Shown here in pieces: positions 8,520 through 30,225 of a DNA stretch of 44,717 nt. The notes under the pieces were generated by a model. That model did not search any database, had not been told where the DNA came from, and saw only the letters and a program-made list of their open reading frames with translations. Within the stretch, counting starts at the first letter, position 1. The number at the start of each line of letters is the position of its first letter. The translations under genes and the position numbers were made by a program. Origin of the DNA: a phage. Where the stretch lies: assembly GCA_036609835.1 (NCBI GenBank), contig GCA_036609835.1_4358.1. One strand, given 5' to 3'.

Positions 8520-8626
8520 TCTTTAATCCTTTGGTTAAGAGGTTACGGGTTAAGGTTAATGCGCCAGACGGGAACCACCCGCTTTTCGTGTGCGACACTA
8601 GGCGCAAAATTATTCTATCACATTAC

Positions 8627-8655
8627 TTGCACACCCCAATATAATAGTGTACTAT
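8627..8655 (+). promoter_or_regulatory. Sigma70-type promoter TTGCAC-N17-TACTAT with AATAG-N4-CTATT palindrome, driving the plus-strand insert operon
   Basis: ttgcacaccccaatataatagtgtactat; 19-mer gcacaccccaatataatag is repeated exactly at 18182; same motif in reverse at 29839-29867. Confidence 0.6.
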
Positions 8656-8696
8656 TCACTTACACCAACGATGTTATCCCAAACAGGAGCTACACC

Positions 8697-26269: not shown

Positions 26270-26768
26270 TCAACCTTTCACCGCGCGCCCAATAGCCTCA
26301 GCCTCTTGCCACGGTTTACCGTCGAACAGCGCCAGACGACCGGCGGTACGACGACGCAGGCCTAGTAACGGTTTGCCGTTCTGGTTGATGAACAGCGCCA
26401 GCTTAGCCCGCAGCGTTGCAATATCACCAGAACGCAGTGCCTTACCCGTGCCGGTAGTAGCAGCAATCACACCAGCACCTGCGTTATACACCAGGTCGCA
26501 CACTGCATCGAACTGTGCCTGTGTCAATGAATGGTGTGCTGCTGCGTCAACCGCAGCTACGGCCTTAGCCATATCACGATTAAGTAACAGGAGGCCTTGT
26601 CCTGGAGTGATGGTCTGCCCCGCCTTAACATGCGGGCCATAGCTTCCATACCCAATAGTCAGGTACTTCTCGTTCGGTGTAGCGCGATACGCGGTTCCGC
26701 GGAATCCCTCGAACGCGGCGGTGAATTTGATGCCATTATCTGAAATGTTTCGAGACACGCTTATGTCC
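26270..26768 (-). CDS. Endolysin, T4-lysozyme-like glycoside hydrolase (GH24-type), 166 aa
   Basis: GTG 26768 with GGAGGA RBS; NGIKFTAAFEGFRGTAYRATPNEKYLTIGYG catalytic-region signature. Confidence 0.75.
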
Positions 26769-27008
26769 TCCGTACGACAGCCACGCCTGACGAATCTGGC
26801 GCAGCGCAACTAAAGTGATTAATGTCTCAGGCAGCGTAGGTGACATGCTGCCCTGTAACAGGTGGATACATCCGGCGGCGCAGACAATAGCTGTCAGGAT
26901 ATAGAGCACCCGGCCAAATAGCCCGTCGTCAACGCTGGGATGATACACATTAAACAGCGATGTGCTCCCGATTGCGAGCATACCACCAAACCAGAATAAC
27001 TCATTCAT
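26736..27008 (-). CDS. Two-TM membrane protein (holin/antiholin-like), 90 aa
   Basis: ATG 27008 (ATGAATGA overlap with upstream stop) after GGAGGTGG; two hydrophobic helices. Confidence 0.5.
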   Translation of the reverse strand: MNELFWFGGMLAIGSTSLFNVYHPSVDDGLFGRVLYILTAIVCAAGCIHLLQGSMSPTLPETLITLVALRQIRQAWLSYGGHKRVSKHFR

Positions 27009-27309
27009 TACCACCTCCGCGACGTGCGATGTATTCTCCGGCGACAATGCCAGAGAGACGGGAATAAATTGGCATCCAGAGAATGGCAATGATGAATCCA
27101 AGGCCCGCTATTTCGCGTTCACCTGCGATACCGAACCATTGAGCGGCGAGAGGCGCACCGAATACGGCGCACGCAAAGCCAGTGGCGAGAAAACAGAGAG
27201 CATCGACAGGGCCGGTAATAGTGGCTTTGTGTTGCCGTAAGCCTATTACCCCACCAGCTAATGCGGCAGCGAGAAGCCACCCCGTCACTGTTTCAGTAAA
27301 TTTATCCAA
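27001..27309 (-). CDS. Holin (putative, 3 TM), 102 aa
   Basis: Three hydrophobic segments and charged C-terminus RRGGGNE; directly upstream of endolysin. Confidence 0.6.
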   Translation of the reverse strand: MDKFTETVTGWLLAAALAGGVIGLRQHKATITGPVDALCFLATGFACAVFGAPLAAQWFGIAGEREIAGLGFIIAILWMPIYSRLSGIVAGEYIARRGGGNE

Positions 27310-27384
27310 GATGAATCCTCCAGGTGCGTATTAAGTATGCAGTAACTGGAGGATAGCACGGTTAGGAATTATCTTAATAACGGT

Positions 27385-27678
27385 TTATTTATGACGCCAG
27401 ATGTATTGTCGTCTCTGCGGTTTCGATGGAATATCATCGTATCCCAGCGATTTCCAGTAATTAAATAACCGATTAGCGATTGCCGCGCGTTCCTGTGTTT
27501 TAAACTCTCCCAGGTTCACGGCCCTCCCGTTCTGGAATCCGCAGGCGCGTACCGCTTTACGTCTGGCCTGGACCTCGGGGTACAGCGCGTTACGGCGACG
27601 CTTGTATATCCTGGTGTTTGTTCTCGGTGACAGCGGCGCAATGCCGCTGCGTTTCAGGATGTCAGTTGCTAGTGACAT
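27385..27678 (-). CDS. Basic protein of unknown function (possible DNA-binding), 97 aa
   Basis: ATG 27678 with GGAGA RBS; Arg/Lys-rich (IYKRRRNALYPEVQARRKAVR). Confidence 0.45.
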   Translation of the reverse strand: MSLATDILKRSGIAPLSPRTNTRIYKRRRNALYPEVQARRKAVRACGFQNGRAVNLGEFKTQERAAIANRLFNYWKSLGYDDIPSKPQRRQYIWRHK

Positions 27679-27880
27679 TGCGATACTTCTCCAGAATCTC
27701 ACCTACCCTATCGTATGCGTATTCGTCCGGTATTAATCCGTAACCCAGGTCATTGTCCAGCTTAACTAACATATCGAGGATACCATTCAGATTGGCTTCA
27801 AGTTCCTTATAGTCTTCGTACGATACAAACACCCCTGCGCCATCAGGTTCACCCGTATAATAGTTATATCTCTGCACCAT
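27662..27880 (-). CDS. Hypothetical early protein, 72 aa; paralog of 27880..28155
   Basis: Starts MVQRYNYYTG and contains VSYEDYKELE, matching MVQRYETYG and VSYEDYAKLE in the adjacent ORF. Confidence 0.5.
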   Translation of the reverse strand: MVQRYNYYTGEPDGAGVFVSYEDYKELEANLNGILDMLVKLDNDLGYGLIPDEYAYDRVGEILEKYRNVTSN

Positions 27881-28155
27881 CACTCCACCCCTTCCACATG
27901 TGTAATTGACCCACAGTTCGCGCACTCGACGTAATCAGGGTACTGGCCTTTGTATTTCTGTAACTCGGCTTCCGCTTTTTCTGCCCGTGTCAAAAAGCTG
28001 AAAGCGTCATTGAGTATCTGCACACGCCACGCCATGAGTTCACTGAACTTACGCTCAAGTTTCGCGTAGTCTTCGTAACTTACAAGATTACCCGCATCAC
28101 ATTTGTAAACTTCCAGCTCCCAGTCAAACCCGTATGTTTCGTATCTCTGTACCAT
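27880..28155 (-). CDS. Hypothetical early protein, 91 aa; paralog of 27662..27880, with Cys-rich tail
   Basis: ATG 28155 after AGGAGAAG; C-terminal YVECANCGSITH. Confidence 0.5.
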   Translation of the reverse strand: MVQRYETYGFDWELEVYKCDAGNLVSYEDYAKLERKFSELMAWRVQILNDAFSFLTRAEKAEAELQKYKGQYPDYVECANCGSITHVEGVE

Positions 28156-28157
28156 AA

Positions 28158-28361
28158 TCACTTCTCCTGTTTACCAAGTCGCTTAGGTGAGCAGATAGCG
28201 CGTACCTCTGAATCGTTTGGCTTGTCGCCCTGGAACAGGAAGTGCGCGTTCTCTGCGGCGCGTGCCGCTGACTGGCACGCCTCCATCGAATAAAACGTTT
28301 CTGATGCCGCTAGTTGCATCTGGCCCGCCGACAATACCCAGATAAATAAGATGCTGGTCAT
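28158..28361 (-). CDS. Small protein with signal-peptide-like N-terminus, 67 aa
   Basis: ATG 28361 (ATGA overlap); MTSILFIWVLSAGQMQLAAS then hydrophilic domain. Confidence 0.45.
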   Translation of the reverse strand: MTSILFIWVLSAGQMQLAASETFYSMEACQSAARAAENAHFLFQGDKPNDSEVRAICSPKRLGKQEK

Positions 28362-28717
28362 GCTAATTCCCTGCATTTCTTGCACACCAAATAATCCTCG
28401 TCGGCATCTAGCACCCAATCATGCTCACCTATTTGGCAACCGGATTGCTCTGTCTTAACCCCACTCTCGACCTTGAAGACTTTACCTTTCTCGTCGAAAT
28501 ATGCGGTAGACCATCTATGCACACCCGCCGCCATGTCAATTTGATGCTGTAACTCGCTCTGCAACTCAGCCACCAGCGCCGACGCATCACGTAACTGATT
28601 CTTAAGTGACAGCACCTCATGTGCCAGGTCTTCGCACTGTTGCTTGTATGGGTGGCTATTTACGTGCTGCCGTAACTGGTCAATCAGGTACTCGAATACT
28701 TCGTTTTTAGTGTTCAT
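28358..28717 (-). CDS. Hypothetical early protein with C-terminal Cys/His cluster, 119 aa
   Basis: Helical N-terminus; C-terminal CQIGEHDW...CKKC. Confidence 0.5.
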   Translation of the reverse strand: MNTKNEVFEYLIDQLRQHVNSHPYKQQCEDLAHEVLSLKNQLRDASALVAELQSELQHQIDMAAGVHRWSTAYFDEKGKVFKVESGVKTEQSGCQIGEHDWVLDADEDYLVCKKCRELA

Positions 28718-28866
28718 ATTCTTCGCTCACCCCGTTATAGACGCCGTTGTAGTCCCCGTCGCAGATGAACGTGTAGAGCATATCTTCGTACTCGTCCTGC
28801 AACTCACCTAAAGTTACTTCGCTATAATCTTTCATCTTCTGTCTCTCCTCTAGTTTGTGTAAATGA

Positions 28867-28895
28867 ATAGTAGCCTATTCTATCTTAGTGTGCAA
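28867..28895 (-). promoter_or_regulatory. Sigma70-type promoter TTGCAC-N17-TACTAT (minus strand)
   Basis: Reverse complement reads ttgcacactaagatagaataggctactat. Confidence 0.55.
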
Positions 28896-28964
28896 GTAAA
28901 TTTTATTGGTGTTTGTATTGTTGCATCTCCTGCAATAGTCGCTTCGATTGTTGCGTTTGGTGAA

Positions 28965-29009
28965 ATAGAACAAAAATGAGAAAAATGATACGCTGCTGTG
29001 TAGCAGCGT
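28965..29009 (-). terminator. Rho-independent terminator separating two leftward early units
   Basis: acgctgctgtgtagcagcgt perfect palindrome followed on minus strand by a T-rich run. Confidence 0.55.
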
Positions 29010-29043
29010 AAGTCACAAAGCCAAATAGTAAACTATTGACCTG

Positions 29044-29804: not shown

Positions 29805-29838
29805 TTCTAAATTCCTTATGTCTCGTTTCGATAAGTGA

Positions 29839-29867
29839 ATAGTATCCTATTATGTTGGGGTGTGCAA
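29839..29867 (-). promoter_or_regulatory. Leftward early promoter TTGCAC-N17-TACTAT with AATAG-N4-CTATT palindrome
   Basis: Reverse complement ttgcacaccccaacataataggatactat; near-identical to plus-strand promoters at 8627 and 18180. Confidence 0.6.
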
Positions 29868-30225
29868 GATAATAGTTACGTTGCCGTTGTGATTCTTCGG
29901 GGAGGGTTGTGCCTTTATTCTTATTACTTGGTAACTAAAGGGCAGGCTTAAGCCTGCCCAATAATCGTTACATTTTTACGGTTGCGAATCTACGGCACAT
30001 TAAGAAACAGTAGATATTTCAGCGGGTTACTTCTTTAAATGAGATTTAGATACACTTATCCATAAACCCCAAGGCAAGCATCTCAGCTGTCTGGGAGGGG
30101 TTGACGAATCCCTCGGGGAGGGTTCGTCAACTCCGTAATATATACAAGTCCCAAAACCATTATACAAACATGTGTCAAGAACTTTCAATAACATTTTTGT
30201 AAAGATTAAATATTACAGAGATTGG

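Follow-up and report, generated by a model that had tools for sequence, protein, structure and literature searches.

Two small, adjacent genes of a coliphage, here called A and B, encode proteins that begin with the same five residues, MVQRY, and the question raised by this locus is whether such a pair is a recent duplication or something older and more composite. Both lie in a stretch of 44,717 nucleotides (nt) from GenBank assembly GCA_036609835.1 (contig GCA_036609835.1_4358.1), which was analyzed over its full length and is referred to below as the window. The window essentially comprises the complete genome of an E. coli siphophage resembling Kagunavirus (Guernseyvirinae), and its best matches in the phage collection are Kagunaviruses, with 88–94% identity over 63–72% of the query. 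The two genes occupy a slot between two conserved genes, encoding proteins of 67 and 97 amino acids (aa), and are located upstream of the holin–endolysin genes, all on the minus strand. A and B belong to a single modular family of accessory proteins that are small, acidic and probably cytoplasmic, termed MVQRY proteins here, and the pair is an example of phage gene mosaicism rather than of a fresh duplication. We hold this anatomical and evolutionary description of A and B with high confidence.

A preliminary description of this DNA had noted that the two open reading frames (ORFs) both start with MVQRY and share a VSYEDYxxLE block. Both features are present at the positions given there, on the minus strand, the block being VSYEDYAKLE in A (residues 25–34) and VSYEDYKELE in B (residues 19–28). 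Between residues 1–50 of A and 1–44 of B, BLASTP finds 19 identities in 50 positions (38%; E=2e-7). The Smith–Waterman score of the pair is 70, compared with 25.1 ± 4.5 for 20,000 shuffles of B, none of which reaches 70, and after removal of MVQRY it is 61, above the maximum of 59 among the shuffles. The likeness is therefore not a matter of chance, and the pairwise alignment that had been proposed as a check gives significance beyond the first five residues. The likeness ends at approximately residue 34 of A and residue 28 of B. From there A runs on to a cysteine-containing end (...YVECANCGSITHVEGVE), and the remaining 44 residues of B are unrelated to A. Thus the Cys tail ascribed to A is real, though it is not an addition to a shorter B, and the proposed paralogy is confined to the N-terminal module. 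In the DNA alignment, A and B share short blocks only, i.e., ATGGTnCAGAGATA, ATACGGGT, TACGAAGACTA and AACTTGA. Exactly two copies of the N-module are present, with no third in the whole window. The stop codon of A and the start codon of B have one base in common (TGATG), a GGAG Shine–Dalgarno sequence lies directly 5' of each gene, and the last 17 nt of B (stop included) overlap the start of the next gene. Both proteins are acidic, with isoelectric points of 4.7 (A) and 4.2 (B), and inspection of the two sequences by eye reveals no hydrophobic stretch or signal peptide.

The anatomy of the two proteins (Table 1) follows from profile matches and structure prediction. The profile phrog_29624 matches A in two stretches, one N-terminal and one C-terminal, which together cover the profile (E=1.4e-23), and A thus holds an insert of about 28 residues. 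The match of B is limited to residues 1–35 and profile positions 1–38 (E=1.2e-5), which makes B a partial member, by its N-module only. In the AlphaFold2 model of A, built with an alignment of 65 sequences (mean predicted local distance difference test score, pLDDT, 84.5), a beta-meander with strands at residues 4–8, 15–18 and 24–25 is followed by a 42-residue helix at residues 27–68 (pLDDT >90) with hydrophobic residues at a spacing of three to four. The C-terminal hairpin around the CxxC motif is weakly modelled (pLDDT 39–63). The model of B, built with 39 sequences (mean pLDDT 77.2), has a weakly defined N-terminus and helices at residues 21–46 and 52–67. The aromatic core residues Y5, V25, Y27, Y30 and L33, as well as the reading frame, are kept in at least 65 sequences. 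In the C-module of A, residues C78, C81 and G82 show no variation among 65 sequences and H86 hardly any, and C78, C81 and H86 are the only conserved candidates for metal ligands.

Table 1. Coordinates of genes A and B, their segments, and the flanking features of the window.
Feature	Position	Strand	Details
Gene A	27880..28155	minus	91 aa; coding 28155->27883; stop 27882..27880; CxxC type (T1), phrog_29624 member
A, shared N-module, aa 1–34	28054..28155	minus	constant MVQRY, variable hairpin, constant G-x-L-V-S-YEDYAKLE; region aligned with B
A, N-cassette, aa 6–24	28084..28140	minus	ETYGFDWELEVYKCDAGNL; one of at least 27 alternative cassette types
A, optional middle cassette, predicted coiled coil, aa 35–62	27970..28053	minus	RKFSELMAWRVQILNDAFSFLTRAEKAE; splits the PHROG match; absent from 57–64 aa members
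A, constant C-module, aa 63–91	27883..27969	minus	AELQKYKGQYPDYVECANCGSITHVEGVE; one CxxC knuckle plus His
Gene B	27662..27880	minus	72 aa; coding 27880->27665; stop 27664..27662; T2 member
B, N-cassette, aa 6–18	27827..27865	minus	NYYTGEPDGAGVF; joined to the CxxC C-module in phage EcoPhCCP1
B, T2 C-module, aa 29–72	27665..27796	minus	ANLNGILDMLVKLDNDLGYGLIPDEYAYDRVGEILEKYRNVTSN; predicted helical hairpin; highly conserved in 39 sequences
Upstream slot flank	28158..28361	minus	67-aa protein, hydrophobic N-terminus; phrog_3766, E=3.8e-36
Downstream slot flank	27385..27678	minus	97-aa basic protein, MSLATDILKRSG...; phrog_9632, E=4.4e-54
Lysis cassette	27001..27309, 26736..27008, 26270..26758	minus	two holin-like genes and endolysin
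Promoter-like element	28860..28903	minus	TTGCAC-N17-TACTAT, conserved spacer; heads unit 28835->26270
Terminator-like hairpin	28989..29010	minus	followed by a T-run; just upstream of the promoter-like element

The MVQRY proteins correspond to phrog_29624 and its relatives and are built from three segments. Segment 1 consists of MVQRY, a variable stretch of 12–28 residues (the N-cassette) and the motif G-x-(W/Y/F/L)-V-x-YEDY-x-x-LE, which starts the long helix. Segment 2 is optional and occurs in five states, namely none, RKF..LNDAF..RAEK (as in A), D.FQDY..EIEGLV, SGLKEWRAQV.. and FKAYKASAY... Segment 3 may be the invariant AELQKYKDQFPDYVECANCGSVTHVEGVE (T1, the form in A); otherwise it is a helical tail of one of several unrelated kinds, namely T2 as in B (LDNDLGYGxIPDEYAYDRVGEILEKY) and T3 to T8. 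A single homologous 'class II' of C-modules without CxxC finds no support, as T2 compared with the other helical tails gives an hhalign probability of 8%. Members of 57–64 aa that lack the middle segment are essentially the phrog_29624 profile (P0099, E=2.6e-29). Read-through extends some T1 genes by a putative zinc-knuckle module, SGC..ECEHxW..CxxCG, and others by a domain of about 60 aa.

Members of the family occur only in Guernseyvirinae phages (Kagunavirus and some Salmonella relatives). A collection of 5.8 billion proteins contains at least 250 A-type and 67 B-type homologues, nearly all on contigs of 42–45 kb and none with a product name or Pfam domain. Among the isolates of the phage collection, tblastn detects T1 genes in 101 records and T2 genes in 20. 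When A, B and the genes around them were scanned with Pfam, NCBIfam and PHROGs, only PHROGs of unknown function were returned, and neither family alignment, used as a profile against PDB sequences, yielded anything below E=0.03. Foldseek against BFVD finds family members and weak matches only. The alignment of B has 12 matches at E<=1e-3 among 1.84 billion representative proteins, all of them small and phage-like, with no informative domain. Literature searches found no paper describing the cassette polymorphism of the MVQRY genes, which is apparently undescribed so far.

We note several further arrangements of these modules. The knuckle module, which is joined in frame to many T1 genes, also ends the 119-aa gene upstream of the slot (28358..28717, minus strand, phrog_6094), which is itself modular, with a coiled coil and a C-terminal C..H..CxxC knuckle, and whose relatives range from 72 to 207 aa with 0–3 knuckle repeats. 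In the remote relatives P0188, P0191 and P0193, the MVQRY..YEDYxxLE module occurs twice in one polypeptide. In P0191 and P0193 the double module is followed by the ~60-aa 'AWTVWHGGENPVPG...DIIAYRVV' domain, as fused to some Kagunavirus CxxC-type genes. A homologue search seeded with a further remote relative, P0196, revealed that a related phage of 44 kb carries another C-module, T3, in this slot; none of the relatives returned was annotated.

The segments assort independently across phages: N-cassette, middle cassette and C-module are each found in combination with different partners. Clustering of the variable stretch of 188 proteins at 60% identity yields 27 N-cassette clusters, 14 of which occur on both T1 (CxxC) and T2 scaffolds. 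The cluster that includes the cassette of A holds 23 proteins, 19 on T1, one on T2 and three on other scaffolds. The five middle states assort freely with the N-cassettes, and four of them are found with the cassette of A. Likewise, the cassette type of B is carried on a T1 tail in phage EcoPhCCP1 (MVQRYNYYTREPDDVGVFVEYEDY...CANCG). The borders of the exchanged piece are sharp. Between A and the T1 gene of phage BUCT825, DNA identity is 97–100% as far as ATGGTACAGAGATA, falls to about 20% across the ~60-nt cassette, and is 93–100% from TACGAAGACTAC onwards. The middle segment of A is deleted in phage 26 and shortened in SE124_1FR. Gene junctions throughout the array have the form GGAG..GTGA(TT)ATG regardless of the following gene, and the exchange points fall in short conserved DNA, i.e., in these junctions, in ATGGTnCAGAGATA and in TACGAAGACTAC. 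In-frame hybrids are also present, comprising a T1 body with a T8 tail (L039), a T5 body with a T1 end (L044) and T2 joined to the T1 knuckle (P0171).

Within each type the cassettes are conserved. For 61 distinct genes, with pairs of the same cassette type compared by the Nei–Gojobori count, the ratio of non-synonymous to synonymous differences per site (pN/pS) amounts to 0.20 for the cassette, at pS 0.32, and to 0.23 for the constant flanks. The T1 C-module differs by 2.5 synonymous versus 1.0 non-synonymous codons per pair (24 codons, 15 genes). All segments, cassettes included, are under purifying selection, and the low pN/pS within a type makes each cassette a conserved allele. The diversity of the family is one of many coexisting, recombining discrete alleles and not of fast evolution of any one of them. 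The pair had been called rapidly evolving; this does not agree with a pN/pS of about 0.2 within a cassette type, equal to that of the constant flanks. Unlike the targets of a diversity-generating retroelement, which have a fixed length and differ by substitutions only, the cassettes span 12–28 residues, cannot be aligned between types and are conserved within a type. In genomes with more than one family gene, the copies carry different cassettes in all 19 inspected.

The occupancy of the slot in relatives bears directly on the origin of the pair. Fifty IMG/VR loci were retrieved with the upstream flank gene as anchor, and 49 of them were scored: the slot is empty in 17, holds one gene in 19 and two genes in 12, and is unresolved in one. 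In the 17 relatives with an empty slot, the stop of the upstream flank gene abuts the 97-aa gene. Phage NTEC3 carries three genes (T1, T1, T2), and the copy-number comparison that had been suggested for related genomes thus gives 0, 1, 2 or 3 family genes per relative. Where two genes are present, a T1 gene precedes a non-T1 gene in 11 of the 12 IMG/VR loci and in six of six isolates, and a T1 plus T2 pair like that of the window is found in Salmonella phage SE124_1FR and in Kagunavirus LM02P1. A has counterparts of 86–99% identity and B of 58–99% identity in other phages and contigs, so that A and B, at 38% over 50 aa, are not each other's closest relatives. The recurrent order and occupancy across relatives point to an old arrangement of the slot rather than to a duplication that arose here.

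Thus the reading of the preliminary description, in which one gene was duplicated locally in this phage and the copies then diverged fast, is largely refuted, and we give it very little probability. It would account for the adjacency of A and B, their common orientation, the TGATG overlap, the shared N-module and the similar upstream junctions. As an event in this genome, it is contradicted by DNA likeness that is limited to short blocks, by the unrelated C-terminal halves, by orthologues of up to 99% identity elsewhere, by the same CxxC-first pair in Salmonella phages and other Kagunaviruses, and by the purifying selection on the cassettes.

The immediate neighbourhood of the slot varies as well. 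In some relatives, HNH or homing endonuclease genes are inserted either within the lysis cassette or upstream of the slot by one or two genes (L005 1300–1773, in NTEC3; L014 2286–2804; L008 4506–4853, in BUCT825), and these endonucleases could help drive local recombination. In many relatives, an HslV-like peptidase gene is found between the 97-aa gene and the holins (L003 1570–2007, L004 3098–3532, L011 3266–3703 and others). The window lacks this gene and has at 27310..27384 a gap of 75 bp; presence or absence of the gene is another polymorphism beside the slot. No spanin genes are recognizable in the annotation of the window or of the curated relative Snoke. The 97-aa protein bears an AP2-like motif, NGRAVNLGEFKTQERAAIANRL, which suggests that it binds DNA, and has no Pfam match at E<=1.

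A and B belong to a co-directional unit (28835->26270) that comprises, in order, a 42-aa gene, the 119-aa gene, the 67-aa gene, A, B, the 97-aa gene, the holins and the endolysin, and no terminator-like site was found between A/B and the holin and endolysin genes. The promoter-like element that heads the unit is conserved in five of seven related loci, where it lies ahead of the same gene whatever comes before it. In the window, this element of about 45 bp (TTGCAC-N17-TACTAT) is present in three copies, at 8622..8660 (plus strand), 28903..28860 (minus) and 29875..29830 (minus), and each copy directly precedes a series of small genes; the pattern, CTTGCACAC-N6-ATAATAG-N2-TACTATTCAyTTA, is expected 0.01 times in the window. 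The element is probably a phage-specific class of regulated promoter. In a time course of Kagunavirus K1B4 the lysozyme gene was classed as 'middle'; the annotation used there (Glimmer) has only 57 genes, and the MVQRY slot is not annotated (PMC12645636). The label 'early', which the preliminary description gave to A and B, is thus conjectural. Further upstream, a near-consensus sigma-70 promoter, TTGAAA-18-TATAAT, is located at 30188..30159 (minus strand), followed by about 220 nt without a convincing ORF. The fold of this stretch (29940..30188), which ends in a strong terminator-like hairpin (29959..29940), has an energy of −71.9 kcal/mol (z=−4.9). The stretch may represent a small RNA, or else a leader in the divergent early control region, and an Rfam scan of the whole window returned no family.

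What the pair does for the phage is a separate matter. We regard it as on balance probable, taking anatomy and function together, that A and B are a modular MVQRY pair that is maintained while homologous or short-homology recombination between co-infecting phages reshuffles it. The two proteins would be cytoplasmic coiled-coil oligomers whose variable hairpin is exposed as the surface that recognizes a polymorphic target, of the host or of a defence system. The alternative C-modules would serve as effector or partner ends, and two genes with different cassettes would widen coverage. The functional part of this account, a coiled-coil oligomer with specificity in the hairpin, is tentative when taken by itself, and we place little confidence in it. 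The 'host interaction' role proposed in the preliminary description is a reasonable guess. In its most specific form, the MVQRY module would be a natural 'display scaffold', in which a constant mini beta-sheet and coiled coil present traded, selectively maintained hairpins, each for a different host or defence variant. The CxxC knuckle or helical hairpins would then be the effector or partner ends, and two-gene arrays would cover two targets. We consider this form doubtful.

Several points weigh against this account. Purifying selection within cassette types is by itself no proof that the types differ in specificity. Different cassettes within one genome are expected by chance with at least 27 types, and they would also result if identical tandem repeats were deleted. 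With the slot empty in about one-third of relatives, any function must be conditional. In addition, clustering of cassettes at 60% identity and gene calls based on regular expressions are crude.

As the main rival, the genes could be effectively neutral mosaic filler, i.e., dispensable passengers of a recombination hotspot, in which the hairpin is a tolerant loop without a role in specificity and the constant blocks are mainly translation and recombination signals. The empty slot in 17 of 49 relatives is in keeping with this, as are the database searches without functional matches, the HNH homing endonuclease genes beside the slot in some relatives, and junction sequences that double as ribosome-binding sites. 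However, filler would not be expected to show purifying selection in spite of synonymous divergence (pN/pS 0.20 at pS 0.32), to keep its frame and the five core residues of the N-module, or to have an N-module fold that is predicted confidently for A, and we consider neutrality unlikely. Less likely than neutral filler are recent duplication, discussed above, and two functional alternatives. If A and B were cytoplasmic regulators of lysis timing, like small holin-binding factors co-expressed with holins, one would understand why genes of these types always lie one to three genes upstream of the two holins and the endolysin, in the same direction and without an intervening terminator-like site. 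Yet the same lysis cassette is found in many phages with an empty slot, the 97-aa gene and often the HslV-like peptidase gene intervene, A and B have no membrane segment, and the Pfam and PHROGs scans reveal no likeness to known lysis regulators; such a role is improbable.

The remaining alternative concerns the CxxC tail, which could be a remnant or half of a Lar-type zinc ribbon in a family that counteracts restriction–modification (RM). Three observations point in this direction. Pfam Lar_restr_allev (PF14354) matches the tail of A weakly (E=0.047, 14.4 bits). The profile phrog_3592 ('Lar-like restriction alleviation protein') matches the N-module and first knuckle of remote relatives and of a gene of EF2-1 (E=1e-6 to 1e-3), i.e., P0189 and P0196 at E=1e-5 to 1e-6 and the EF2-1 fusion gene at E=1.3e-3, at profile positions ~2–72 only. 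Read-through variants gain a second CxxC and hence a full ribbon. Nevertheless, 14.4 bits is far below the PF14354 gathering score of 28.6, B has no match to it, and phrog_3592 is matched by neither A nor B, even at E<=10. Instead of the two-knuckle ribbon and WN.R, there is one CxxC and a His in A, B lacks a Cys motif altogether, and a genuine Lar-like protein (KFSST1) has CPFCG...CxxCG...WN.R and no MVQRY module. Furthermore, the BASEL Kagunaviruses, which are reported to be highly sensitive to RM systems (PMC11990801), carry a CxxC-type (T1) gene. Restriction alleviation is improbable, and assignment of A and B to a Lar-like family was rejected on the lack of phrog_3592 matches, the sub-threshold Pfam score, the knuckle count and RM sensitivity.

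As such, A and B are a routine find, two small hypothetical genes from the plastic accessory region of a coliphage genus that is common. The unusually clean three-segment structure deserves to be recorded, with at least 27 hairpin alleles on otherwise ~95% identical DNA, all under purifying selection; discrete selected alleles on nearly identical DNA are the pattern expected of a polymorphic specificity determinant. Only if the hairpins turn out to determine specificity would the locus be of more than modest interest. As small phages that are amenable to synthesis and already employed in phage-therapy studies, Kagunaviruses would offer a cheap experimental target in a dispensable slot that may encode host-range or defence-related specificity. 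Should no phenotype be found, the locus still documents how short junctions drive gene gain, loss and in-frame fusion in phages. Should the display-scaffold form hold, small phage accessory proteins would include a balanced specificity system of a new kind, based on cassettes.

Among described families, the closest is phrog_29624 (PHROGs v4, a 60-position profile with no function assigned), which represents the minimal CxxC form only. The profile misses the middle cassettes, the C-modules T2 to T8 and the cassette polymorphism, and covers half of B. The likeness to Lar and Lar-like proteins (PF14354; phrog_3592) is that of small phage proteins with a Y-V-x-C-x-x-C-G knuckle, and in remote relatives the MVQRY N-module together with the first knuckle is similar to the N-terminal ~70 positions of phrog_3592. 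The Rad50-type zinc hook is a coiled coil that ends in CxxC, with zinc shared between two chains, and may be cited for the predicted coiled coil and CxxC of A as an analogy only. The morons of the lambdoid nin region and the hyperplastic regions of T-even phages exchange modules at conserved gene-boundary sequences. Like these, the MVQRY slot is a dispensable array of small genes with presence/absence polymorphism and with joints at short junctions of ribosome-binding site and start codon. Unlike them, MVQRY shuffling is also intragenic, and acts on three segments with many in-frame cassettes under purifying selection.

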